64,000 bases of DNA from Candidatus Microsaccharimonas sp. (GTDB lineage: Bacteria > Patescibacteriota > Saccharimonadia > Saccharimonadales > Saccharimonadaceae): positions 556,699-620,698 of the forward strand of contig JBATAC010000002.1 in assembly GCA_049661485.1 (NCBI GenBank). Reading direction: 5' to 3'. The notes beneath the pieces were generated by a model. It did no database searches. It was not told where the DNA came from and was given only the letters and a program-made list of their open reading frames with translations. Below, piece by piece: positions 4,379-60,938 of this stretch. Numbering within the stretch: position 1 is the first letter of the stretch; every line of letters begins with the position of its first letter. The position numbers were made by a program, and so were the translations under genes.

Positions 4379-5938
4379 TTATGCAAGGTAGCGCTTTACA
4401 AGCTCTGCTCTACTTTTTCCTATAACTTGTTCTATTTCAGAGAGTTCAGTTGCTTTCAGTTTTGTAATACTACCAAACTTTTTAATAAGTGCCCGACGAG
4501 TGACGGGGCCAATCCCAGGAATTTCATCTAAACTGCTTGCCGTTTGTTTTGAACGTTTCAAAACGGTATGGTAGCTTACCGCAAAGCGGTGTGATTCATC
4601 GCGGATGCGTTGAAATAACTTCGTAAGATGGGCGTATTTTGCTGGCCCCGTATCGGCGCCGCGTAAATTTTTTGAGTGACCCGAGGCGTTCGTTTGACCG
4701 GCGTGAAGGTTAACGATAAAATAGCGACCACTTCTTTCAACATAGACACCACTTTCCATTAACTCGCCTTTCACATACCGCTCGAGCCTATCGGTCGAAA
4801 TATTCGAATCTAAACTATCAACAATTACCTCTTCTTCACGCTTGGCGATACTAATAACAGGAATGGTTAATTGTCGTTCTTTCAAAGCTTTTATAGCAGC
4901 TTCGAGCTGGCCTTTTCCACCATCGATGAGAAGTAAATCCGGTGTTCCCCAATCTTTAAGATTTTTTTCACTTAAGCGGCGAAGTAACACCTCGTTCATA
5001 TTGCCATAATCATCATTACGCTCTATACGGGTTTTAAATTTACGATAATTTGCTCGGTCGCTTACCCCATTCGTAAACGTTACCATGCTAGCAACTACGT
5101 TCGTACCACCCATGTGGCTAATATCATAGCCTTCAATACGGGCTGGAATTTTTGGAAGGTTGAATAATTCAACTAAGTCCCCTAGCGCCTTGTCTTTACT
5201 AATATCTAAAAATTCTCGGTCACCAAACATAATCCGCTGCTGAAGTGCCTTTAAATCATTAAGCTTATTACGATAAAGTGCTGCATTCTCGAAATCGTGT
5301 AACTTGGCTGCTAACTGCATGTTTTTTTCAATATCGCGGATGATTGCCTTGCGGCCACCTTCAAAATAGCGAATGAGTTGCTTTAAAGTCGCTTTATATT
5401 CTTGTGAAGATGTACCAGGACGAGGGCTTAAGCCAATGTGTGAGTCAAGGTCGGGCCTGTTTCCATCTTTAGGGGGTTTCGTATAATATGGAAAAACTTT
5501 TCTTAAATAGCGAAGTGCTTTTTTAATTGCAAAGCCATTATAGTACGGACCGAAATAGTCCGCCCCATCATCAATTGGGTTACGAGTAAACGAAACGGTT
5601 GGCCATTCACTTTTCATGTCAATTCGTACAAAGGTTTGCGATTTATCATCTCGAAGTAAAATATTGTAGCGTGGCATGTAACGCTTGACCATTTCAGATT
5701 CTAAGAACAAGGCATCAAGCTCACTTTCAGTTTCAACCCAGTCGGTGTCATAAATTTCTTCAACCAATGCCCTAGTTTTAATATCCATGTCGCGAGTACT
5801 TTGAAAATACTGACGCACACGGTTTTTAAGAATTGCAGCCTTACCCACGTAAATAATTTCACCGCTTTTCGACTTATGAAAATACACTCCAGCTGAGCGC
5901 GGGAGGCTTTTTAGTTTTGCTTCAAGCGTGGTATTCAT
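4379..5938 (-). CDS. uvrC: excinuclease ABC subunit C
   Basis: N-terminal GIY-YIG domain (GVYFHKSKSGEIIYVGKA...YNILLRDDK), UvrC endonuclease core, and C-terminal HhH (IPGIGPVTRRALIKKFGS). Start trimmed to MNTTLEAKL (ATG at 5938). Confidence 0.9.
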   Translation of the reverse strand: MNTTLEAKLKSLPRSAGVYFHKSKSGEIIYVGKAAILKNRVRQYFQSTRDMDIKTRALVEEIYDTDWVETESELDALFLESEMVKRYMPRYNILLRDDKSQTFVRIDMKSEWPTVSFTRNPIDDGADYFGPYYNGFAIKKALRYLRKVFPYYTKPPKDGNRPDLDSHIGLSPRPGTSSQEYKATLKQLIRYFEGGRKAIIRDIEKNMQLAAKLHDFENAALYRNKLNDLKALQQRIMFGDREFLDISKDKALGDLVELFNLPKIPARIEGYDISHMGGTNVVASMVTFTNGVSDRANYRKFKTRIERNDDYGNMNEVLLRRLSEKNLKDWGTPDLLLIDGGKGQLEAAIKALKERQLTIPVISIAKREEEVIVDSLDSNISTDRLERYVKGELMESGVYVERSGRYFIVNLHAGQTNASGHSKNLRGADTGPAKYAHLTKLFQRIRDESHRFAVSYHTVLKRSKQTASSLDEIPGIGPVTRRALIKKFGSITKLKATELSEIEQVIGKSRAELVKRYLA

Positions 5939-5949
5939 AGCCCACCGTC

Positions 5950-6852
5950 TTATGCCGCGACCGCAAGTGCTTTTTGACGGCAAATTTCAGTGTGAAAAAG
6001 CAGATCTGGGTTTGTTTTACAGTTTTCGCAAATCAACACAAGGTCGTTACAGTTTGCAAAGGCGCAGTTTTCAAAATTACTGGTTTTACTTGCACAATGG
6101 GTACACGCACCAATGGTTTTTGCATGGTCTGAAAATTCGACGGTCATTCGGTTATCAAAAACTCGCAGCGAGCCTTCCCATAAGCCATCGTCACCATAGG
6201 CTTCACCATACTTAACAATCCCACCATCAATTTGATACACATCTTTAAAGCCACGCTTTTTCATCATGGCCGAAATAACCTCACATCGAATTCCACCGGT
6301 ACAGTACGTAACAACTTTCTTGTCTTTAATGTCGTTATATTTATCGCTTTCAAGCTCGGCAATAAAATCGCGGGAAGTATTAGTATTTGGTACAATGGCA
6401 TTCTTGAATTTACCAATTTTAGCCTCGTGTTCGTTTCGGCCATCGAAAAACACAACTTCATCACCATACTTTTCAATCAGTTCATGGACTTGTTTTGGTT
6501 TTAAATGAGTACCGCCACCAACAACGCCCTGTTCATCAACGTCAAATTCAGTCTCACTATTTTGGAAGCCAACCAGTTCACGACGATGCTTCACACTCAT
6601 ACGCGGAAAATCTTCGCGCCCACCATCACTCCATTTGAAAACGACATCTTTAAAACCAGGGTACTGCTTTGTCGCCTTTATGTAAGCTTTTAAATCTTCT
6701 ACCCCACCACCAACCGTGCCGTTTAATCCATGGCGACTGACAAGAATACGGCCACGCAAATTAAGGCTATCAGTCAGTGTTTTTTGCCATAGCTTGACGG
6801 CTTCGGGGTCACCGATAGGGACAAATTTATAGTAAAGAAGAATTTTCTGCAT
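5950..6852 (-). CDS. trhO: rhodanese-domain tRNA uridine(34) hydroxylase (UPF0176/YceA family)
   Basis: MQKILLYYKF start, rhodanese active-site loop CTGGIRCE, and a C-terminal Cys cluster (CTHC...CANC...CENC). Confidence 0.8.
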   Translation of the reverse strand: MQKILLYYKFVPIGDPEAVKLWQKTLTDSLNLRGRILVSRHGLNGTVGGGVEDLKAYIKATKQYPGFKDVVFKWSDGGREDFPRMSVKHRRELVGFQNSETEFDVDEQGVVGGGTHLKPKQVHELIEKYGDEVVFFDGRNEHEAKIGKFKNAIVPNTNTSRDFIAELESDKYNDIKDKKVVTYCTGGIRCEVISAMMKKRGFKDVYQIDGGIVKYGEAYGDDGLWEGSLRVFDNRMTVEFSDHAKTIGACTHCASKTSNFENCAFANCNDLVLICENCKTNPDLLFHTEICRQKALAVAA

Positions 6853-18345: not shown

Positions 18346-18442
18346 ACCCTTATTATAGATGAGAACTATGAAGTTGTTCTTTAATGGCTTTAGAAAAACA
18401 AAAAAACACCTAGTTGGTGCTTGGTACGAAGGTGTCGGTAAC

Positions 18443-18453
18443 CCGACAGTGTA
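18443..18453. repeat. left arm of a perfect 11-bp inverted repeat (CCGACAGTGTA) flanking high-GC cassette A
   Basis: CCGACAGTGTA at 18443-18453 is the exact reverse complement of TACACTGTCGG at 19033-19043. Confidence 0.8.
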
Positions 18454-18484
18454 GTGCTAAAGCAGTAAATCAAGACGAGCCAAC

Positions 18485-18518
18485 GGCCCGGATGCGCGCG
18501 CGTTGGCGCATCCGGGCC
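18485..18518 (-). terminator. GC-rich hairpin downstream of the high-GC ORF (terminator-like, no clear U tract)
   Basis: GGCCCGGATGCGC, an 8-nt loop, then GCGCATCCGGGCC form a 13-bp perfect stem. It lies about 90 nt past the stop of the 18610..18933 gene. Confidence 0.5.
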
Positions 18519-18609
18519 GCCTTTGCAGCTCATCGGCCAGAGAAGCCGCACCGACTTCTTGGCTGAGGAATGCGTGATGAACTGCAGCTTGATGTCGCGC
18601 CGACGTCGG

Positions 18610-18933
18610 TCAGGCGGCGACGAGCTCGCGGGTCACGACGTCGATCGCCTGGACCACATCGGGGTGGAGCGGATCGCTGCCGGTGGCCTGGAGATCGAAG
18701 CCGCGACCGCGGGTCTCGATGATCTCGATGGCCTCGGCCTTGGTCGGCACCTGGCCGGCGTAGTCGACGATGTCGGACTCGACGCCCTTGCAGCCCTCGG
18801 TGCCGTCGGGCTTGAGGAGGGTGTCGATCATGTGGTCGCCGAGGCCGTCGCCGAAGCCCGAGCACGTGGAGTCGAGGATGAGGTTGTTGTCGATGCCGTC
18901 GTCCACGGGCTTGGTCGTGTGGTGCATGGTCAT
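18610..18933 (-). CDS. hypothetical protein of foreign (high-GC) composition, 107 aa
   Basis: ATG at 18933 follows AAGGAG with a 7-nt spacer. Almost every codon ends in G or C (ATG ACC ATG CAC CAC ACG ACC AAG CCC GTG GAC GAC GGC ATC...). Sequence MTMHHTTKPVDDGIDNNLILDSTCSGFGDGLGDHMIDTLLKPDGTEGCKG... matches no family I recognise. Confidence 0.7.
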   Translation of the reverse strand: MTMHHTTKPVDDGIDNNLILDSTCSGFGDGLGDHMIDTLLKPDGTEGCKGVESDIVDYAGQVPTKAEAIEIIETRGRGFDLQATGSDPLHPDVVQAIDVVTRELVAA

Positions 18934-19032
18934 GGTGTCTCCTTGGTTCGGTGTTGCCAGGATCCTGCGCACGTTTGCTAACAGGTCACTACCTAAGAAT
19001 GATCTTATATAGAGACCTGTCAGCAAATTTTA

Positions 19033-19043
19033 TACACTGTCGG
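19033..19043. repeat. right arm of the perfect 11-bp inverted repeat (TACACTGTCGG) flanking high-GC cassette A
   Basis: Exact reverse complement of 18443-18453. Confidence 0.8.
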
Positions 19044-19093
19044 ATTATTAATGATCTAATGAGAACAAAAGCTCAATCATTAGCTTAAAATGT

Positions 19094-19122
19094 ATTTTAT
19101 CACTAAAGTACGTTTTTGTCAA
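19094..19122 (-). promoter_or_regulatory. near-consensus sigma70-type promoter reading into high-GC cassette A
   Basis: The minus strand reads TTGACA (19122-19117), a 17-nt spacer (aaaacgtactttagtga), then TAAAAT (19099-19094). It sits immediately after the obg stop codon. Confidence 0.6.
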
Positions 19123-20494: not shown

Positions 20495-21271
20495 TTAATG
20501 TATGTAGTAGTACTGGCCGACTTGACTTGCCGATAGAATACGGCCAGAAACAATGTTGTAACCACCACCTGATACAGAGGCATTCATTTCACTAAGCTGT
20601 AGGTCACCATTCGGTAGTACCGCTTCAACAACAGCCACGTGACCCCAGTCTTGAATGATTGCACCAGCCGAAGGTGAACGGTCAACTTGATAGCCAGCAG
20701 CACGAGCATTTGCCGCCCAAGCACCAGCGTTACCCCACATAGAACCAATTGGTGCGCCCATTTGAGCACGACGCCAGTGAACATAGGAAGTACAGTTACC
20801 ATAAGCGTACCCACCAGAAGCACCGATACCTTTACTAATAAACCATGTGCTAGTACCGCTAAACCCAGAACTGTAGCCGGTAATAAACGTTGCAGTGTTA
20901 GTAGCTGACGCCGCAGCACGTGGCGCAACGTAGCCAGGACGCTCAGTCTCGGGAAGTTGTGCATTTGGAACAACAATCTTTAAACCGGTCGAGAGGCCAT
21001 TAATTTCAAGGTCATTATAAGTAGTAATAAGTGAAGCATCCGCTTTATACTTATCAGCAAGACCCTGAATCGTATCACCTTCCTTAACGGTATAGACAAC
21101 ACCATCACGTGGTAGGATTTCAAGGCTTGAACCAGCAGCCACAGTGTCACCTGTAAGGTTGTTAGCCCATTTAATGGTATCAACAGATAGGCCGTACTTA
21201 GCAGCTACACTTGTAACAGTATCACCTGGCTGAACAGCGTAGGTTGTAATGTTACGGCTCGCTGATGACAA
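20495..21271 (-). CDS. LysM-LysM-CHAP peptidoglycan hydrolase (annotated core; N-terminus probably extends to about 21630, see findings)
   Basis: Two LysM repeats (YAVQPGDTVTSVAAKYGLSVDTIKWANNL; YTVKEGDTIQGLADKYKADASLITTYNDL). CHAP domain with catalytic Cys/His context (GNCTSYVHWR...WGHVAVVEAV). The ORF-track start is a TTG. Confidence 0.85.
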   Translation of the reverse strand: MSSASRNITTYAVQPGDTVTSVAAKYGLSVDTIKWANNLTGDTVAAGSSLEILPRDGVVYTVKEGDTIQGLADKYKADASLITTYNDLEINGLSTGLKIVVPNAQLPETERPGYVAPRAAASATNTATFITGYSSGFSGTSTWFISKGIGASGGYAYGNCTSYVHWRRAQMGAPIGSMWGNAGAWAANARAAGYQVDRSPSAGAIIQDWGHVAVVEAVLPNGDLQLSEMNASVSGGGYNIVSGRILSASQVGQYYYIH

Positions 21272-22000
21272 CTGTACAATTGCCGGCTTACTAATAGTTG
21301 AGCTAACACTACCAGCACTTTGTTGGTATTCACTTTGTACACGAGTTGAAACGGCTAGCTCGGCGACGTTAGGCGCAACAGCTAAAGAAGCTGCCTGAGC
21401 AACTGAAGCCGCAATACCAGTAGCAACGACATCATTAACTGCAGGTTGATCGGCAGCTGATGGTGTATTTGCAACAGCAGTAGATGCAGCCGTTGCAGAC
21501 TGCTGCGGTGCACGGTAGCCAACGCCAATAACTGCAACAAGCAGTACGAAAACGCTGGCATAAATAGCGACGGTTGACGATTTAATGCGACCTTTTTGAG
21601 ATCGCTTTTTTGTAATATGTGCTGGTACATTGCTTGAACGTACTACAGCTACCCCACCCTGGGTAGTGTGAACACTACCGCCCGTAATGTCATTACGAAT
21701 TATCGTTCTCCTGCCGCTCGGATTTCTCTCGAGGGCGTCTACCGTAATAAGTCTTTGCTTCTTGCTTTTAAAACAAGAAAAGGATACATGTCGACCAGTG
21801 TTATTATATTATAGTTTCTGGTACCCGTACGACTGTTCAGATAGGCGCATTAAGCTTCATACATCTTACTCGCAGGTGCTTTCGGCTAAATCGGCCGGAG
21901 GAAACACTAGTAGATATGAAATACTCAATGTGCTTACCCTATTGTAGCAACTATGGCTTTTTAAGTCAATTTATTTTATAACTATGCTATTTTGTCAAGT

Positions 22001-41899: not shown

Positions 41900-42823
41900 T
41901 TATAGCATTGGAAGCACAAAGAAATAGAATGCAGCACCGGCACCGGCGCCCAGAATAATCAATAAAAATATCCAAAGGATTGTTAGGCCACCTGACTTCT
42001 TTTTGACAGGGGATGAGAATGGTTGGTGATAATTTTCGGTATCGTAAATCGCACCCGACGCCTCTTCAAGGCTTGGCTGTTCAGTGTATTGCTGGGTAAT
42101 TGATACTGGGCCAACTGGCTGCTCTTCAATAACCAGCTCTTGCGGTTTGACCGCTAGTTGTTCTTGCTCGGCTTCAAAACGAGTAAACGTTTGGAGGTCA
42201 AATAGCTCTTCTTCATCATTTGTCTTTTTTTGCGTCTCAGTATCTTCTTTTTCTGAAGGTAGAATATCATTTTGGGCGGCGAAATCAATTGGGTCAGGCA
42301 TAGTATGGGCTTCTAGAAGCGGATCATCAGGGGCTTCAATGAGCTTGATTTCTGACTCTTTGGCAATTGGCTGTTCGACAATTGACTCTTTGATGTTCGG
42401 ACCTACCCAAGGCTCACCACCAAGCGGTCGCTTTTCGACTTTTGTACCAGCTAAGAATGGTGATTCCAGCGGGTCTTGCCAATCGAACTGCGCTACTTCC
42501 TCTAAAGGCTCTTCTTCAAAATGAAGGGTGGGTTCTACTACCACAGGCTCAGGTGGAGTGGGTTGAGCAACAGGAGGGATCTCGGCTGTACGAGGCCGCA
42601 TATCAGAAGAAGGATGAACAACATCCATAAAGCGACCAGCACTTCGGCGAATTGCCGGAGCCGAGCTTACTGCTGGCTTTGCAGGTACGGGCTGAGGCTG
42701 CTCGACCGGCTGTGCTACCGATTCTTCGTAGGTAAGGTCTGGGGTAGTACTAGCATTTGTCTTTTTGTTTAAAGCGCCAGTTACTGCTTTATCTATTTCA
42801 TCAAAATCAAAGTCTGCCATCAC
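41900..42823 (-). CDS. hypothetical Pro/Glu-rich protein with C-terminal membrane anchor
   Basis: 307 aa of acidic low-complexity sequence ending in a TM helix (LTILWIFLLIILGAGAGAAFYFFVL). No family recognised. Confidence 0.5.
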   Translation of the reverse strand: MMADFDFDEIDKAVTGALNKKTNASTTPDLTYEESVAQPVEQPQPVPAKPAVSSAPAIRRSAGRFMDVVHPSSDMRPRTAEIPPVAQPTPPEPVVVEPTLHFEEEPLEEVAQFDWQDPLESPFLAGTKVEKRPLGGEPWVGPNIKESIVEQPIAKESEIKLIEAPDDPLLEAHTMPDPIDFAAQNDILPSEKEDTETQKKTNDEEELFDLQTFTRFEAEQEQLAVKPQELVIEEQPVGPVSITQQYTEQPSLEEASGAIYDTENYHQPFSSPVKKKSGGLTILWIFLLIILGAGAGAAFYFFVLPML

Positions 42824-46475: not shown

Positions 46476-46583
46476 ACAAAAGAACAAATCAAAGGAACAA
46501 AAAAGTTTTTACCCGAAGTATTGTAACAAAAAAACCCCTGTTTGACTAGTGCCTATCGGGGTTTAAAATGCATTTTTTAAGTG

Positions 46584-46629
46584 CCCGCCGTCGAGCCTCG
46601 CAGCGAAGTGCCACGAGGCCCGACGGGGG
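46584..46629 (-). terminator. GC-rich hairpin downstream of high-GC ORF B
   Basis: CCGTCGAGCCTCG, a 13-nt loop, then CGAGGCCCGACGG form a stem with 12 of 13 bases paired, flanked by CCC/GGG. It lies 20-65 nt past the stop at 46650. No U tract. Confidence 0.45.
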
Positions 46630-46649
46630 TATACCCCGGGGGTGGAGAT

Positions 46650-47066
46650 TCAGGCGACAGCCGTCACGACCGGTCGGCCGTAGACGGTAGTGGCAGAAAC
46701 CACCACGGTCGTCTTGCCACCCGAGGGCTGCTGACGGCGTGCCCGTTCCTCTTCGCAGTAGACTGTCATCCACCTCTTACCAGAGGGGTAGACCGACGAC
46801 TTCGCGCAGTAGGCGCGGGTAACCATCAGGAAGGCGTGCGCAAGGGCAGCCTCCCACCCTTCCAGGTCACCGGCGATAGCCTCGAGCTTGGCCTGAAGGC
46901 CGGACTTGGGCTGACGACGATGATCATCCAGAAGCTTGGCAGCACGTTCCTGGCAGGCGGTGTACGAGAGGTTCTTGATCTCATATTCCGGCACATTACG
47001 TGCAACCCAGTTCGCGAGCTCCCAGTCCGCGTCGCTCATCGTCTTTTCAAGCAGTTCAGTACTCAA
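46650..47066 (-). CDS. hypothetical protein of foreign (high-GC) composition, 138 aa (129 aa if started at ATG 47039)
   Basis: TTG at 47066 follows GGAG with a 5-nt spacer; an in-frame ATG lies at 47039. Third codon positions are GC-rich. Sequence (...MSDADWELANWVARNVPEYEIKNLSYTACQERAAKLLDDHRRQ...) shows no signal peptide, no TM helix, and no family I recognise. Confidence 0.6.
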   Translation of the reverse strand: MSTELLEKTMSDADWELANWVARNVPEYEIKNLSYTACQERAAKLLDDHRRQPKSGLQAKLEAIAGDLEGWEAALAHAFLMVTRAYCAKSSVYPSGKRWMTVYCEEERARRQQPSGGKTTVVVSATTVYGRPVVTAVA

Positions 47067-47178
47067 TCTGACTCCATCAATCTCGACCCCAACTTATGGG
47101 GTGTATAGCCACGATTGGCTTCACAACTCCGATTACGAAGCAGTGAAAGCTGAATAAACAGCCCATACTTAGTCGGAA

Positions 47179-47207
47179 AATATACGCTTTTTGACAAAAA
47201 ATGTCAA
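47179..47207 (-). promoter_or_regulatory. near-consensus sigma70-type promoter reading into high-GC ORF B; its -35 box lies inside a perfect palindrome
   Basis: The minus strand reads TTGACA (47207-47202), a 17-nt spacer, then TATATT (47184-47179). The plus strand at 47191-47207 reads TTGACAAAAAATGTCAA, a 6-5-6 perfect palindrome. Confidence 0.55.
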
Positions 47208-47337
47208 ATAGTATCTAATTTAGTGTATTTGCGGCTACAGAGACCCCATATATAGCGGATTATAGGCTGAAATGTGCTCCTTCGACTAAGCTCTCATAAA
47301 AAAGCTTGTGCTTTTACTATCTATATTGTATAAAGCA

Positions 47338-47366
47338 TTGACATTTTGAACATTATGTGATAAATT
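47338..47366 (+). promoter_or_regulatory. near-consensus sigma70-type promoter reading into high-GC cassette C
   Basis: TTGACA (47338-47343), a 17-nt spacer (ttttgaacattatgtga), then TAAATT (47361-47366). The spacer ends in GTGA, as does the spacer of the cassette A promoter. Confidence 0.6.
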
Positions 47367-47428
47367 AAGTACATCATTCACGGGTGCGGTGCGAGAGACC
47401 ACGCCAGGGTGAGGAGGTCGTTAACAAG

Positions 47429-47450
47429 TCAGATCATTACAGTGCATCAA
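47429..47450. repeat. left arm of the imperfect inverted repeat bracketing high-GC cassette C
   Basis: TCAGATCATTACAGTGCATCAA compared with the reverse complement of 49814-49837 (TCAGATCATTACAATGTGCATCAA): identical except for a 2-nt indel. Weaker similarity extends to about 50 bp (GGTCGTTAAC... versus GGTTGTTAAT...). Confidence 0.8.
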
Positions 47451-47629
47451 TTAGTGCACTGATTTGCTTTAGGAAAAGCTGAGTACTTATTGGAAGCAGC
47501 GCGCCAGTTCGTTTATACGAATTGACGCGCTGCTCCCAACCACCCTCTCAGGGAGCTAGCTGCGGTAAACGCATTCAACATGCGCGAACCCGCGCAACCG
47601 ATCCCACGAGAGGGAGAAACGAGTACATC

Positions 47630-48133
47630 ATGTCCACTTCCACCGCCCCCACGACGCCCAGAGTTCCCAATGTTCTCGTGCTCAAGCGAGCAGACATCTT
47701 CGTCGGTTCGTTCGTCATCGGCCTGGTCGCCAACCTGGTTCTGATCATCGCGGTCTTCACGTCTGGCGTGTCGACCGGGGTGGCCGGGACCTTCGGTTTC
47801 GACTGGTCTCAGTTCCAGAACACCCTGACCTTCCTCTTCGGAGGGATCGGGTCGGCTCTGTGGCTCATCGGCGGTATCGTCGTCCTGGCCGCGACCGGCT
47901 ACGCTTTCTACTGGCTTTCGAGCCATGGTCATCACAAGTGGGTCGTCGTCGCATCCTTGATCGGCATGTTCGTCGGAGGGTTCATCCTCTGGCGACTGGT
48001 CGATTGGTCCAACTTCGGGTTCGGCTTCGTGCCGCTCCTCATCCTGATTGCCTACACCGCCTTCTGGGCGGGAGTGGCATCGTTCATCATCCCGCTTCGC
48101 CCCAAGCTGTCGCGCAAGCGCGGCACCAACTGA
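47630..48133 (+). CDS. hypothetical 4-TM membrane protein of foreign (high-GC) composition
   Basis: ATG at 47630 follows GGGAG. 167 aa with four hydrophobic helices and a basic C-terminal tail (RPKLSRKRGTN). Third codon positions are almost all G or C. Confidence 0.7.
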   Translation: MSTSTAPTTPRVPNVLVLKRADIFVGSFVIGLVANLVLIIAVFTSGVSTGVAGTFGFDWSQFQNTLTFLFGGIGSALWLIGGIVVLAATGYAFYWLSSHGHHKWVVVASLIGMFVGGFILWRLVDWSNFGFGFVPLLILIAYTAFWAGVASFIIPLRPKLSRKRGTN

Positions 48134-48146
48134 AAGGAGGTGCGCT

Positions 48147-49655
48147 ATGCAGCGCATCGTAGCGGCTCTGTCCGCATCCATGGTGGCCGTGCTCCTGCTC
48201 GCAGGCTGTTCATCCACTAACGTCAACTGGGCGGGCGGTTCGTCCGACCTCCCCGACGTCAACCTGAAGGACACCGCTTCCGTGCAGGCACTGTGCGGTG
48301 GGGAAGCCGAGACGGTTCTCAACACCGTCTCAGAGGCAACTACCACAGAGGAGAGCTCGGGCCAGCGCAATGCGCTGACTTCCCTGGGTCTCTCCGCTGA
48401 AGAGGTGAACGACAACAACATGCTGACGGAGATCATCGGCGCGCTCAAGGTTCGCGCTGCGGACAACGAGTGCGCGGCCGACGAGCAGACCTCGAACCAG
48501 TCCGGACAAGTGGGTGTCGAAGAAAACGACGGCACCCAGTTCACGCTTCCGCTGGTTTCGGGGTCCGATTCGACCCTCATCGTCGACAGCACAACACAGG
48601 CGGCAACCCCGCCGCTGCTGGATGGTTCGCTTCGCTTCACCGCGCAGACCCTCACATGGGAAGGCCTGGTGCAGCGTGTGGGCAACCAGCAATGGTATAT
48701 CGATGGCATCAACGCACGTGCGGCCCAGACGGGCTTCACGTGGGACGATGTTCTGAGGTTCGCTTCGGTGAACCGCATGAAGGACGGTAAGGTCGACAAC
48801 AGCGGCGTCAACGCGCTGGCAATTCAGATCTTCAACCGTCCCGATCTCACCGACGACCAGGCTCGCGCCGAAGTCGCCAAGTACATCACTCCCGAGGTCG
48901 AGAAGGTCATCAACGTCACGGTCTACCCCGTTCTCGACCAGAGCGGAAACATCGTGAGGGCGGGCCTTCCGATCCAACGGATCAACAACGGCTTCATCAA
49001 CACGATGAATGTCGGCTCGAAGGCCGAGCCGAGCATGGGTAACTACTTCGACACGCAGCGCATGGTTCGCGTGTCGCTGATGCCCATCACGTTCGACGAT
49101 GCAGGCAAGGCGGTCAGCCTCGACGGAAGTCGAGGTGCGGGTATCTTCATCGACTGCGGCAACCTTCACTGGGTGCCGAAGGCGGTGTGGTACTGCAAGT
49201 CCGACTCCTGCGAGAAACCGCAGTGTCCCATGGGCACTATCGGTACTCCGCCGAACTGTTCGGTTCCCACGCCCCCGACGCCGACTTCGCCGCCCTCGCA
49301 TCACGAGGAGTGCGTTTCGGACTGCCTCGAAGACAAGGACTGGGATAAGAGTCCCCAAGAAGACGGCTGGGTACCACTGGATGTGGGACCCCTGACCGAT
49401 GGAAGGGGGTCTCAAGCTCAGCTGGAATCCGGCGAGACCAGCGGGAACGTCATCGACAATCCCGTGGCGGAAGACACCAAGACGGGCGACACCACGACGG
49501 ATCTGCCGAGCGGTACAATCACCGCGCCGGGAGCTACGGATGGAGGTGACGACCCGTCACAAGGTGAAGTCGACGAAGAGAACACGAACGGCGACGAAGG
49601 TGGCACCGATGGTGACACCTGCGTTCCGGATGTGATCGCAGGCATCACCTGCTAG
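48147..49655 (+). CDS. putative secreted lipoprotein of foreign (high-GC) composition, Cys-rich with acidic C-terminal tail
   Basis: ATG at 48147 follows AAAGGAGG with a 6-nt spacer, 13 nt after the upstream stop, which suggests an operon. Signal peptide with lipobox (MQRIVAALSASMVAVLLLAGC). 503 aa. Contains a Pro/Thr linker (PTPPTPTSPP), a Cys-rich stretch and an Asp/Glu/Gly/Thr-rich tail. Confidence 0.75.
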   Translation: MQRIVAALSASMVAVLLLAGCSSTNVNWAGGSSDLPDVNLKDTASVQALCGGEAETVLNTVSEATTTEESSGQRNALTSLGLSAEEVNDNNMLTEIIGALKVRAADNECAADEQTSNQSGQVGVEENDGTQFTLPLVSGSDSTLIVDSTTQAATPPLLDGSLRFTAQTLTWEGLVQRVGNQQWYIDGINARAAQTGFTWDDVLRFASVNRMKDGKVDNSGVNALAIQIFNRPDLTDDQARAEVAKYITPEVEKVINVTVYPVLDQSGNIVRAGLPIQRINNGFINTMNVGSKAEPSMGNYFDTQRMVRVSLMPITFDDAGKAVSLDGSRGAGIFIDCGNLHWVPKAVWYCKSDSCEKPQCPMGTIGTPPNCSVPTPPTPTSPPSHHEECVSDCLEDKDWDKSPQEDGWVPLDVGPLTDGRGSQAQLESGETSGNVIDNPVAEDTKTGDTTTDLPSGTITAPGATDGGDDPSQGEVDEENTNGDEGGTDGDTCVPDVIAGITC

Positions 49656-49659
49656 CTCT

Positions 49660-49696
49660 GGTGAGCGGGTGGGGTCCTACGCCCCGCCCGCTCACC
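49660..49696 (+). terminator. GC-rich hairpin immediately after the lipoprotein stop
   Basis: GGTGAGCGGGTGGGGT paired with GCCCCGCCCGCTCACC gives about 16 bp including two G-U pairs. It starts 5 nt after the TAG at 49653-49655. The following sequence is T-rich but not a clean U tract. Confidence 0.55.
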
Positions 49697-49813
49697 ACCT
49701 AGTGATTTGCGTTTCCTTTAGCATTTCCAAGGAGTTGTTAAAATTGCTGAGTTTCTAGCGAACTCGCTTTCATACAACTCCTTGTGAGTTACTTTTGTAA
49801 ATCGCGCAATTAG

Positions 49814-49940: not shown

Positions 49941-51584
49941 ATGAGTAAACTTATGTCTCTCATTCGTCGAGCCCCTAAGCGCTTTAGCGCAGGTGTGATA
50001 ATGGCTGCAGCTGCAATCATTATCCCTGCCGCTGCATATGCTTGGGGTCCTAGTCGACCAACTTTTACAGGAGCTAACCCAGCCCCTTACGTAACATTTA
50101 ACTCAATTACAGATAATGCACAGGTTGGAGACGAACGAAACTTTGTTCGAATCCGTGAATCTGGCGTTAGCGCTAATTATGGCGATAATGTATCCCTCAC
50201 CCCAGGTAAGGTCTATGATGTGTCTGTGTATTATCACAACAACGCCGCATCTAACCTTAACGATAGTGGAAAAGGTATCGCTAAAGATGCAAAACTTAAG
50301 ATGGAAGTTCCTGGTATAGTAAATGCCGGCGTTAACGCTGTGTTTACCGGTACCGTATCCGCTTCAAATGCTAATCCTGGTTCAGTCTGGGATGAAGCAT
50401 ATGGTAAGAACTCGACAAATGGCCAAGTTGCGCTTCGTTATGTTTCAAACTCTGCAAAGTTTACCAGTAATGGCGCAATTAACGGACAAAAGCTTCCAGA
50501 TACATTGTTTACAACAGGCGCAAACCTCGGTTTCAACGCACAAGACGGTACAGTACCTGGTTGTAACGAATATTCTGGCTTTGTTACATTCCAGATTCGT
50601 GTTGATCAACCGGACTTTAATGTTGTGAAGAAAGTAAGTGTTGACGGTGGTAAGACATGGGCGGATAGCGCAAAAGCAGAAGCCGGTGCAACCGTACAAT
50701 ATTACATATCGTACCAAAATACAGGTACTACACAACAAGACAATGTACTTGTTCGTGACATGCTCCCTCAGGGTGTTTCATACACCGCTAACAGTACAGA
50801 GATTATGAACTCAACCACAGGTGGTCAGTTCAAGAAAACTGTAGAGGGAATTACTACTAATGGTCTCAACGCTGGATCATACCAGCCAAAAGGCAACGTC
50901 GGGTACAAGTTTAGCGCTAAACTTCCTAATGAAGATGCACTCAAGTGTGGAACAAACACACTTACAAATACTGCTCGCGTTACTACAAATGCAGGCTACA
51001 AGGAAGATACTGCCACTGTTACAATTGACCGTGAATGTAAGCCAACCGTTAAGTACACCTGTGACGCCCTCTCAATCAAGACTATTAGCCGTACTGAATT
51101 CCAATTCACCACTGCTTATACTATTGAAAACGCCACATTCAAAAATGTTACCTACGTGATTCGCAACGCTCAGGGCCAAGAAATTGACCGTAAGACTGCG
51201 ACATCAAACACACTTAACTACACCCAAACAACTCCTGGTGCATACTCTGTTCAAGCTATCGTAACAGTTACCGTTGATGGCCAAGACAAGACTATAACCA
51301 GTAACGGTTGTAAGGCTGCCTTCGAAGTTCCTAAGACACCTGGTGATATCACCGTATGTGAACTAGCTACTAAGAAGATTGTTACTATTAAGGAAAACCA
51401 ATACGACGAGTCTAAGTACTCTAAGGACCTTAGTAAGTGTGCAGAAACACCTACACCTCCAGTCACTCCACCAGAACTTCCAACTACTGGTGCGACTGAA
51501 AACATTGTTGCCGTTGTTGGCCTTGGTGCATTGATTGCAAGCGCTGCTTATTACATCGCAAGCCGTCGTGCTCTAAACCAATAG
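49941..51584 (+). CDS. LPXTG-anchored cell-surface protein (DUF11/Ig-like repeat type)
   Basis: Signal peptide (MSKLMSLIRRAPKRFSAGVIMAAAAIIIPAAAYA). C-terminal sorting signal LPTTG, then a hydrophobic helix (IVAVVGLGALIASAAYYIA), then SRRALNQ. Native low-GC composition. GGAG lies 8 nt upstream of the ATG. Confidence 0.8.
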   Translation: MSKLMSLIRRAPKRFSAGVIMAAAAIIIPAAAYAWGPSRPTFTGANPAPYVTFNSITDNAQVGDERNFVRIRESGVSANYGDNVSLTPGKVYDVSVYYHNNAASNLNDSGKGIAKDAKLKMEVPGIVNAGVNAVFTGTVSASNANPGSVWDEAYGKNSTNGQVALRYVSNSAKFTSNGAINGQKLPDTLFTTGANLGFNAQDGTVPGCNEYSGFVTFQIRVDQPDFNVVKKVSVDGGKTWADSAKAEAGATVQYYISYQNTGTTQQDNVLVRDMLPQGVSYTANSTEIMNSTTGGQFKKTVEGITTNGLNAGSYQPKGNVGYKFSAKLPNEDALKCGTNTLTNTARVTTNAGYKEDTATVTIDRECKPTVKYTCDALSIKTISRTEFQFTTAYTIENATFKNVTYVIRNAQGQEIDRKTATSNTLNYTQTTPGAYSVQAIVTVTVDGQDKTITSNGCKAAFEVPKTPGDITVCELATKKIVTIKENQYDESKYSKDLSKCAETPTPPVTPPELPTTGATENIVAVVGLGALIASAAYYIASRRALNQ

Positions 51585-51640: not shown

Positions 51641-51669
51641 AAAACCCCGTTCGTAAGAGCGGGGTTTTT
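51641..51669 (+). terminator. rho-independent terminator after the LPXTG gene
   Basis: AAAACCCCG, loop ttcgtaaga, G, then CGGGGTTTTTGG. The stem is followed by a T run. Confidence 0.65.
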
Positions 51670-51686
51670 GGTATACTGATGTATAT

Positions 51687-59714: not shown

Positions 59715-60938
59715 TCAGCGGCTAATAATCTCGATAATACGACGAGCAATTTCTACCATATCTTCTTCTTTAAGCCCCATGGTTGTCATCGCAGGTGTAC
59801 CTAAACGGATACCACTTGGCCTGTATGGTGGTAACGAATCATCAGGCACCGAGTTAGCATTAAGGATAATACCCTCGGCTTCTAGGCGCTCCTGAGCCTC
59901 CTTTCCATCAATACCGAAGCTTTCATAGACATTGGCCAGAATAAGATGGTTTTTTGTACCACCTCCAATAAGCTTAAGCCCGCCCTTCTTCAACTCTTCA
60001 GCTAAAACAGCAGCATTTTTCACTACCTGTTGAACATATTCTTTGAATTCAGGCTGAAGGGCCTCATGAAACGCAACAGCCTTAGCAGCAATTACGTGCA
60101 TGTGCGGCCCACCCTGCATTCCTGGGAATACTGCACGATCAATAAGTGTAGGAATGTTTTCAATTGTTTTTTCAGGCGCTTGTAATGGATTACCCACCTT
60201 ACCCTTTGACAAAATCATTCCACCTCTTGGGCCTCGTAACGTTTTATGTGTGGTCGTTGTAATAACATGGAAACCATAGTCAAATGGATTTTTCGCTACA
60301 CCACCGGCAATAAGTCCAGCAATATGCGCCATATCTGCCATAAGTAATGCCCCTACTTCGTTACCAATTGCAGCGAACTTCTCGTAATCAAGCTCACCAG
60401 AATAGGCACTAAAACCAGCCAGGATAATTTTTGGCTTATGTTCTAGTGCAAGCCGACGAAGCTCTTCATAGTCAATTTCACCGGTGTCAATGTTTTTCAT
60501 TTTATACCGAACAAAATTATAAAGATGCGCACTTCGGGTGACAGGCGCACCGTGAGTTAAGTGACCACCGTGGCTTAGATCCATCGCAAGGACAGTATCA
60601 CCAGGTTCGAGCCACGCGCTATAGACAGCTTCGTTAGCTGGCGCACCAGAGTGAGGTTGCACGTTGGCGTGGTCAGCCTTGAATAGCTCTTTGGCGCGAT
60701 CGATCGCTAATTGTTCGAGCTGGTCGGTATACTTTTGGCCGCCATAATAACGCCTGCCAGGATACCCCTCTGAATATTTATTTGTAAAAACACTTCCTAA
60801 TGCATTAAGAACATCTTCACTCACGTAATTCTCACTTGGAATTAATTCAATAACATCATGTTGTCGCTCTGTTTCACCTGCGATTAACTGCGCAACGGCA
60901 TCATCATGTTGCACCGTAGGACGATTTGTATCAGCCAT
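59715..60938 (-). CDS. glyA: serine hydroxymethyltransferase
   Basis: LIPSENY, PLP-lysine context ([14 protein letters not shown]) and SGIRLGTPA motifs present. Confidence 0.95.

Follow-up and report, generated by a model that had tools for sequence, protein, structure and literature searches.

This study examined the GC-rich islands in a 64,000-nt stretch of DNA from Candidatus Microsaccharimonas sp. (assembly GCA_049661485.1, contig JBATAC010000002.1, positions 556,699 to 620,698; hereafter the window, in whose coordinates all positions are given). Two of the islands, A and C, are bracketed by complementary arms behind a strong promoter, and these bracketed units, here called cassettes, are its main subject. 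The window belongs to a Saccharibacteria (TM7) genome and has a GC content of about 43%; its Obg protein is 70-85% identical to the Obg of 80 genomes, the majority of them labelled Saccharibacteria. Three islands stand out, with an interior GC of 0.60-0.70 compared with 0.43 elsewhere:

~18475 to 18975, minus strand: island A, between obg and an sbcB-like exonuclease gene
~46560 to 47100, minus strand: island B, adjoining tRNA-Glu
~47480 to 49700, plus strand: island C, upstream of a DUF11/LPXTG surface-protein gene

The GC content at third codon positions (GC3) is 0.95 in the open reading frame (ORF) of A, 0.71 in that of B, and 0.83 and 0.76 in the two genes of C, whereas it is 0.33-0.38 in neighbouring genes. 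Cassette A consists of the following parts, in order along the minus strand:

19094 to 19122, minus strand: promoter with TTGACA, a 17-nt spacer, TAAAAT and an extended -10 TG, agreeing with the consensus at 11 of 12 positions
19056 to 19083, minus strand: leader hairpin (CUAAUGA, loop UUGAGCUUUUGUUC, UCAUUAG), a two-tier stem near the inferred 5' end of the transcript (z = -3.2)
19033 to 19057, minus strand: junction AGATCATTAA (19057-19048), then the 5' arm TAATCCGACAGTGTA (19047-19033), placed by profile alignment on the family consensus aggtaCattaAcaagttgga
18974 to 19027, minus strand: long AT-rich hairpin (25-nt arms) that separates the 5' arm from the GC-rich cargo and appears in the minimum-energy fold
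18610 to 18933, minus strand: cargo ORF of 107 aa with start MTMHHTTKPVDDGIDNN and GC3 0.95, an orphan
18484 to 18519, minus strand: GC-rich 14-bp hairpin in the 3' untranslated region (UTR), 100% complementary, just upstream of the 3' arm
18439 to 18453, minus strand: 3' arm TACACTGTCGGGTTA, 15 nt, complementing the 5' arm with one U·G pair (93% complementary)
18398 to 18422, minus strand: intrinsic terminator GCACCAACUAGGUG with a U run, outside the arms; a terminator occupies the equivalent position in 24 orthologous cassettes

The corresponding parts of cassette C, several of which are conserved in the related loci L001 and L002, are these:

47338 to 47366, plus strand: promoter with TTGACA, a 17-nt spacer, TAAATT and an extended -10 TG, conserved in L001 and L002
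47374 to 47412, plus strand: leader hairpin with a two-tier stem; other C-type loci, e.g. L093, have different stems that still pair
47414 to 47453, plus strand: junction AGGTCGTTAA, then the 5' arm (47420-47453), containing AGATCATTA and ACAGTG, two motifs discussed below
47440 to 47469, plus strand: local hairpin CAGUGCA...UGCACUG followed by a U-rich tail; it is conserved in both L001 and L002
47490 to 47539, plus strand: long GC-rich hairpin (23-nt arms) with which the GC-rich interior opens; it is conserved in both L001 and L002
47543 to 47616, plus strand: helix of CCCUCUC (47543-47549) with the ribosome-binding site GAGAGGGAG (47608-47616), seen in the minimum-energy fold
47630 to 48133, plus strand: gene 1, encoding a multi-pass membrane protein of 167 aa (GC3 0.83); identity to its orthologues is 29-66%, and their GC3 is 0.80-0.91
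48147 to 49655, plus strand: gene 2, a 502-aa lipoprotein with lipobox LLLAGC, GC3 0.76
49659 to 49697, plus strand: GC-rich hairpin with 16-nt arms just past the lipoprotein stop codon, with equivalents in L001 and L002
49811 to 49846, plus strand: 3' arm, complementing 47420-47453 over ~34 nt
49941 to 51584, plus strand: DUF11/CLIPPER gene for an LPXTG-anchored surface protein, located past the 3' arm and of native GC content

An initial annotation of the window had proposed that the promoters and leaders of A and C are homologous, and that they form a shared scaffold which captures foreign genes. All the motifs that it listed were found. Both promoters combine TTGACA and a 17-nt spacer with TG-n-TAAA(A/T)T (A at 19122-19094 on the minus strand, C at 47338-47366 on the plus strand), and the pattern TTGACA-N14-TGNTAWAWT occurs at these two places alone in 64 kb, whereas chance would give ~0.25 matches; since the pattern was derived from the two sites themselves, the test is post hoc. 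The stretch with ACAGTG was also correctly assigned to the promoter-proximal inverted-repeat arm of both islands (19047-19033 in A, 47420-47453 in C). The motif AGATCATTA is present three times in the window, each time at these cassettes (19057-19049, minus; 47431-47439, plus; 49835-49827, minus). ACAGTGYAT is found only at 19040-19032 (minus) and 47439-47447 (plus), and two matches to it are unremarkable (29 of 100 shuffles). The pairwise alignment that had been suggested as a check of homology did no better than shuffled sequence, an outcome that on the terms set in that annotation would overturn the claim. Local alignment of 47338-47475 (plus) with 19122-18990 (minus) scored 19, compared with 16.4 ± 2.3 for dinucleotide shuffles (157 of 1000 as good), and global alignment of the leaders was likewise not significant (288 of 1000).

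For comparison, 80 obg loci were fetched from related genomes. The gap between obg and sbcB in these loci is bimodal: it is a low-GC spacer of ≤100 nt in ~25 genomes and spans 390-1740 nt with a local GC of 0.51-0.74 in ~50 genomes. The complete genome CP075337.1 ("TM7i", L026) is among those with an occupied site. At the occupied sites, the obg stop codon is followed by a strong promoter of the form TATTGACAaaa...TGcTATAAT, then by a two-tier hairpin, a CATTAA junction and the 5' arm, and after these by the GC-rich interior, a GC hairpin, the complementary 3' arm, an intrinsic terminator and the promoter of sbcB. The order from strong promoter to 3' arm recurs in ~50 of the 80 Saccharibacteria obg–sbcB loci and in every C-type locus with an examinable leader region. 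Thus, the repeated expression scaffold proposed in the initial annotation stands, without the insertion or docking function that had been attached to it. Empty obg–sbcB sites, including those of the two closest relatives (L005 and L037), have neither the promoter nor the terminator. The promoters belong to the cassettes, contrary to the proposal that cargo had been placed under native promoters. Where the gap is larger, it contains two or three units in tandem, and every unit has its own promoter and arms. Tandem cassettes with arms of the TGACAAGYTGGAT type were located between obg and sbcB at L016 2459-3891, L031 5309-6734 and L065 5296-7027, and some of their cargos are barely GC-enriched (0.46-0.49). 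Across loci the A-type arms measure 13-26 nt. In 25 of 26 A-type loci it is the 3' side that carries the GC hairpin, and the position corresponding to this hairpin of cassette A is rich in GC in 25 of 26 orthologous cassettes.

The leaders were further compared by means of a profile hidden Markov model built from 24 orthologous obg–sbcB leaders, from promoter to 5' arm, with the window left out. This A-family profile found exactly two matches in the window, each over the full length of the profile: cassette A at 19126-19033 (24.3 bits, E = 9e-7) and cassette C at 47332-47440 (21.0 bits, E = 1e-5). In 60 block-shuffled windows, the best scores were 5.0 ± 1.9 bits, with a maximum of 10.7. The profile also produced the top match in each C-type locus, and it matches upstream of a remote lipoprotein homologue in L096 (E = 0.003). 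Its score is divided into ~11 bits for the promoter part and ~8 bits for the leader-arm part, and the promoter part matches the cassette A promoter at E = 0.0036. The alignment to the profile pairs AGATCATTAATAATCCGA of A with AGGTCGTTAACAAGTCAGA of C; the identities in AGATCATTA and ACAGTG between the two leaders are thus out of register and probably coincidental. Homology of the leaders, as claimed earlier, is in this way backed by a 24-leader profile that matches only these two places, in a register other than the one first proposed. Folded singly, 24 of 24 leaders gave a two-tier hairpin of the same type; RNAalifold returned no consensus structure for 18 mixed leaders, whose stem lengths differ. 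A profile of the A-type 3' ends (arm and terminator) picked up generic terminators only (E ≥ 0.03), and the 3' side therefore provides no evidence for homology between A and C. Overall, these comparisons support, at moderate strength, a scaffold common to A and C that would be real at the profile level.

The alternative is that A and C share no common descent, each having combined a strong promoter with local 5'–3' pairing by convergence or chance. Such an origin would agree with the insignificant pairwise alignment, with the share of the profile score (about half) that is generic promoter consensus, with the failure of the reverse search using a C-family profile, and with cassette B, which is bracketed (12 bp) and has no profile similarity. 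It accords less well with a full-length match that covers promoter, hairpin spacing, junction and arm at 21 bits, against at most 10.7 in shuffles, and no other promoter in the window was matched by the profile. Moreover, with the leader-only profile the C arm remains the highest-scoring site in the window, as it does in every C-type locus searched apart from L093, and the CRTTAACAAGTYRGA motif falls in one column block across both families. We consider independent origin unlikely, if still worth keeping in view.

The arms pair far better with their own partners than with those of other loci. The median complementarity score was 23 within loci and 15 between loci (p = 6e-12), and a score of ≥26 was reached by 21 of 51 within-locus pairs compared with 0.3% of cross-locus pairs. 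In C-type loci the helix comprises 33 pairs, of which 92.5% are paired across 9 loci; eight pairs have changed on both sides, none of 500 shuffles was as good, and slid controls were 25-39% paired. The helix also contains conserved sense-strand G·U pairs, with G·U at pair 19-82 and U·G at pair 38-60 (each in 6 of 9 loci); on the opposite strand both would be A·C mismatches. The positions of promoter and terminator are consistent with both arms lying on one RNA. For the inferred A transcript (690 nt), the minimum-energy fold includes the closing helix between the arms, and its energy of -309.8 kcal/mol is far below that of shuffles (-233 ± 6.6; z = -11.65). The covariation, the sense-strand G·U pairs, the fixed polarity, the promoter and terminator outside the arms, and the minimum-energy fold together favour arms that would act as a 5'–3' closing helix in RNA, rather than as transposon ends or an inversion switch.

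An invertible DNA switch, in which a recombinase flips a segment relative to a fixed promoter, would likewise place inverted repeats of 15-34 bp around a segment downstream of such a promoter. However, the polarity of the units is constant. No inverted orientation was seen: the GC hairpin keeps to the 3' side in the A-type loci as described above, and the lipoprotein gene is sense-oriented behind the leader in every C-type locus where both could be located. Furthermore, tolerance of G·U pairs is confined to the sense strand, and no recombinase was noticed beside either cassette, although no systematic search was made. An inverton is thus extremely improbable.

The initial annotation favoured a repeated element or docking site, and the inverted repeats might indeed be the ends of a mobile insertion cassette (MIC), of a miniature inverted-repeat transposable element (MITE) or of a docking site that captures foreign high-GC genes, for example from an actinobacterial host. 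The sharply different composition of the interiors (GC 0.60-0.70 vs 0.43, GC3 up to 0.95), the occupation of the site in some genomes and its emptiness in close relatives, and the orphan status of the A and B proteins are what such an element would produce. So is the turnover of the cargo: the A-type interiors are unrelated between species, with DNA similarity in 6 of 1275 pairs, and these six are near-identical genomes or matches of 21-44 nt only. However, gain or loss affects the arms together with the promoter and terminator, both of which are located outside them, so the arms are not the outermost ends. No direct repeat flanks the A arms, whose borders read CATTAA|arm and arm|CCGACA. At ~10 nt past the 3' arm of C there is a TTAACAA repeat, but its 5' copy belongs to the helix and does not make a target-site duplication. 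Divergence of the arms over orthologous loci is gradual and includes compensatory changes, and G·U pairs are kept on the sense strand. The 64 kb of this genome covered here contain two copies, which are highly diverged.

The history of the C cargo also speaks against capture. In most of the related genomes fetched, the pair of membrane-protein and lipoprotein genes, followed by the DUF11/CLIPPER gene, is located beside pyk; in L094 and L096, which have remote lipoprotein homologues among other neighbours, the CLIPPER gene is still the next gene after the lipoprotein gene. In all ten genomes compared, the GC3 of cargo C is 0.68-0.91, whereas that of pyk and the DUF11 gene is 0.30-0.47. Lipoprotein identity falls to 31% while pyk keeps 82-91%. 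A foreign composition that was passively retained should have decayed at 31% identity, and the sequence comparison thus indicates that the GC-richness of cargo C is old and maintained, with no trace of recent import. A recently transferred island would be absent from relatives and have homologues in a donor, whereas cargo C is in place and GC-rich in 10 genomes. Relatives of the lipoprotein occur only in contexts typical of Saccharibacteria or the Candidate Phyla Radiation (CPR), homologue searches revealed no donor lineage for the cargos, and a search of phage genomes and viral contigs gave no match to the cargo. Both the A protein (107 aa) and the B protein (138 aa) lack homologues (a search of 5.8 billion proteins with the former returned itself alone), and none of the four cargo proteins belongs to a family in Pfam or NCBIfam. 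An AlphaFold2 model of the lipoprotein was too poor for a fold search (mean predicted local distance difference test score 55.6, predicted template modelling score 0.38). A docking site that captures foreign genes cannot readily be squared with arms internal to the gained or lost unit, covariation of the RNA type, an old cargo C and the lack of a donor, and we judge a mobile element or docking site to be quite improbable.

Twenty unrelated cargo interiors had a mean fold z of -5.3, compared with -0.7 for obg coding controls, and the 3' UTR of A (z = -5.2), the leader of C (z = -7) and the 3' UTR of C from the GC hairpin to the 3' arm (z = -11.3) are strongly folded. In C, the local 8-bp hairpin at 47440-47469 overlaps the inner 5' arm and could form an alternative, terminator-like fold that would compete with the long-range helix; it may be an attenuator or regulatory switch. 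Both halves of the helix between CCCUCUC and GAGAGGGAG, in front of the membrane-protein gene, are conserved in L001 and L002, and the fold suggests translational occlusion of that gene. The pairing of the ribosome-binding site and the alternative local hairpin, as predicted, suggest that expression of C is regulated or processing-dependent.

These features resemble the fold-back messages of type I toxin–antitoxin systems (hok/sok, aapA/IsoA), in which 5'–3' pairing silences a stable toxin mRNA until its 3' end is trimmed. The closing helix, the highly structured RNA, the small ORFs in some A-type cargos, at least one hydrophobic-looking cargo peptide (L047) and the sequestered ribosome-binding site of C could all be accommodated by such a system. 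Nevertheless, the encoded proteins are of another kind: the A protein has 107 aa, is acidic and is not membrane-like, and the products of C are a membrane protein of 167 aa and a lipoprotein of 502 aa, whereas a toxin of this type would be hydrophobic and shorter than ~60 aa. A convincing GC3-rich ORF was found in only ~10 of 51 A-type cargos, and a consensus scan revealed no antisense promoter-like site inside cassette A. A toxin–antitoxin function is accordingly rated very improbable.

The small GC3-rich ORFs of A-type cargos (L007, L009, L011, L013, L076 and 18610-18933 of the window) frequently end in alanine-rich tails (..DVATA, ..DLATA, ..AAGSA, ..ATSA, ..LVAA), and a DGIDN motif is common to the window A protein and the L009 peptide; these may be traces of a common origin or a common degradation signal. 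An MMRLRP* mini-ORF with a strong GAAAGGAG ribosome-binding site is the sole stretch common to the cargos of L006 and L010, which are otherwise unrelated, and similar mini-ORFs are present in L026, L013 and L007.

The explanation we lean towards, if only slightly, is that A and C belong to a family of self-contained "paired-termini" transcription units with a wide distribution among Saccharibacteria. Complementary end segments with pairing-preserving covariation are in keeping with the paired-termini class. The architecture of the units can be read from the sequence comparisons as a near-consensus, presumably very strong sigma-70 promoter with an extended -10, a two-tier 5' hairpin, a CAUUAA junction, a 5' arm (ACAAGUYGGA...), a GC-rich folded interior in which small or surface-protein ORFs may be present, a GC hairpin and a 3' arm, which in the A-type units is followed by an intrinsic terminator. 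The arms would pair in the RNA, through a helix of 15 bp in A and ~33 bp in C, and close the transcript into one large domain. The function is probably RNA stabilisation or processing. Most likely, the clamp, with the leader hairpin near the inferred 5' end and the long flanking hairpins (19027-18974 and 18519-18484 in A, 47490-47539 and 49659-49697 in C), would either shield both ends of the RNA from exonucleases or serve as a site for double-strand-specific processing of the RNase III type. An RNase III stalk is a near-perfect helix of ~20 bp or more, and the helix has 33 pairs in C and 15 bp in A; that of C has the look of a target for a nuclease specific to double strands. In C, where the ribosome-binding site would be sequestered, the message would stay inert until processed. 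The raised GC, mainly at third codon positions, would then be a maintained property of the clamped interior.

Several observations weigh against the paired-termini explanation. The 15-bp helix of A is short for a typical RNase III substrate, and of 51 occupied obg–sbcB loci, only 27 had arms that a simple search could recognise convincingly. In the outer C helix, 13 of 21 pairs are invariant, and the sequence is conserved well beyond pairing needs; this conservation could come from protein binding or a role at the DNA level. The extra folding of the coding parts is modest (z = -1.9 to -4.6), and RNA structure alone may not account for a GC3 of 0.76-0.95. No terminator follows the 3' arm of C, the next terminator-like site being at 51651-51678, and the C transcript may run on into the DUF11 gene. 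Without its promoter part, the leader profile is weak (8.2 bits, E = 0.28 for C; 3.9 bits for the window A). In the reverse direction, a C-family profile made from eight C-type leaders gave no significant A-type match in 745 kb of obg loci (best L070, E = 0.3); the C profile probably has too narrow a scope to recognise leaders of the A type, and because this search was not significant some room is left for convergence on a strong promoter and a short motif.

The family appears to be previously undescribed. A literature search returned no description of this feature, and only a report on engineered RNAs turned up, in which termini paired through flanking inverted repeats form a double-stranded stem that stabilises RNA in E. 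coli (Nakashima et al. 2006, PMC1635301). As in those RNAs, flanking inverted repeats pair the ends of the transcript. The engineered RNAs are synthetic, short and antisense, whereas the present units are natural, 0.4-2.4 kb long and conserved across a phylum-level lineage, and they carry their own promoter, leader hairpin and terminator. Resemblance to rRNA processing stalks is also evident, in that a long-range helix encloses a GC-rich structured RNA in an AT-richer genome within a unit that is strongly expressed (here by inference). In rRNA operons, the stretches on either side of 16S or 23S rRNA form a helix that RNase III cleaves. The present cargo is not rRNA and includes protein-coding genes and hypervariable sequence. 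In hok-type type I toxin mRNAs, the fold-back elements (fbi/tac) pair the 5' and 3' ends. The cassettes are similar in their 5'–3' pairing around a structured message, the occluded ribosome-binding site and the small ORFs of some cargos; they differ in that no antisense antitoxin promoter was found, the cargos of the window are not small hydrophobic toxins, and C has 2 kb of coding sequence. Mobile insertion cassettes and MITEs have in common with them the inverted repeats around cargo of another composition and the presence or absence between genomes, but here the arms are internal to the gained or lost unit and evolve by compensatory change with G·U pairs, there is no target-site duplication, and the location is orthologous. 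An integron cassette would be a promoterless ORF with a single attC, arrayed beside an integrase gene, whereas each of these units has its own promoter and terminator and repeats that bracket the cargo.

A broader reading is that the clamped RNA cassettes are a previously unrecognised, CPR-specific class of genetic element, in which a dedicated process keeps the interior GC-rich while its sequence turns over rapidly and the scaffold stays fixed; this we consider improbable. On the same reading, the cassettes could supply hypervariable structured RNAs, small peptides and surface proteins for the interaction of epibiont and host. The hosts of cultivated Saccharibacteria are high-GC Actinobacteria, and the host-like codon usage of the cargos could reflect a function connected with the host cell.

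GC-rich islands in low-GC genomes are routinely taken as recent horizontal transfer, and that reading fails here: these islands would be ancient, in conserved positions and actively kept GC-rich, with a conserved RNA scaffold that is absent from Rfam. In them a GC3 of 0.7-0.95 would be maintained against a level of ~0.35 in the remaining genes of the genome. Candidates for a role at the epibiont–host interface are the fast-evolving cargos to which the scaffold draws attention, namely the membrane protein, the lipoprotein, the adjacent LPXTG surface protein and the small peptides or structured RNAs. In addition, the units offer a case in which natural paired-termini control of RNA stability or processing could be tested, in organisms that have minimal regulatory repertoires, and their architecture provides a concrete annotation rule for Saccharibacteria genomes, where such regions are often mis-called, as with the antisense ORFs of L001. 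There, the public gene calls at 5322-5975 are minus-strand ORFs lying over the plus-strand GC-rich membrane-protein gene, which suggests that GC-rich cassettes mislead gene callers.

Cassette B, on the minus strand at 46527-47207, has a promoter at 47207-47179 and a terminator at 46563-46527, next to tRNA-Glu. A 12-bp bracket, GGGGTCGAGATT (47090-47079) with AATCTCCACCCC (46650-46639), surrounds the orphan 138-aa ORF; the bracketed design is that of A and C, yet B gave no match to the A-family leader profile. Two other GC peaks, at 42526-42751 and 60526-60726, were considered as further cassettes and rejected, as they lie inside ordinary long ORFs. The TTGACA in the arm motif was considered as an antisense promoter and rejected by eye, there being no -10 element at the right spacing. 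The DUF11/CLIPPER gene, which always stands behind the lipoprotein gene, may belong to the same operon.

A search of the window and 15 loci against Rfam 15, at gathering and E-value thresholds, assigned the cassettes to no family and returned tRNAs and lysM-TM7 only; sub-threshold matches to miRNA models (E = 0.4) were noise. The lysM-TM7 RNA (RF03005) at 21708-21846 on the minus strand, upstream of a LysM-repeat ORF (20495-21271), is the sole described Saccharibacteria-specific structured RNA in the window. Like the cassette leaders, it is a lineage-specific structured leader RNA of the same genomes, but it has no relation to the cassettes in sequence or structure. Its motif occupies an equivalent relative position in 12 related obg loci. 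Finally, the divergent promoter region between B and C (47179-47366) is conserved at the DNA level in L001 and L002, including GGTTGACAAAnAATGTCAAnTATTGTGT.

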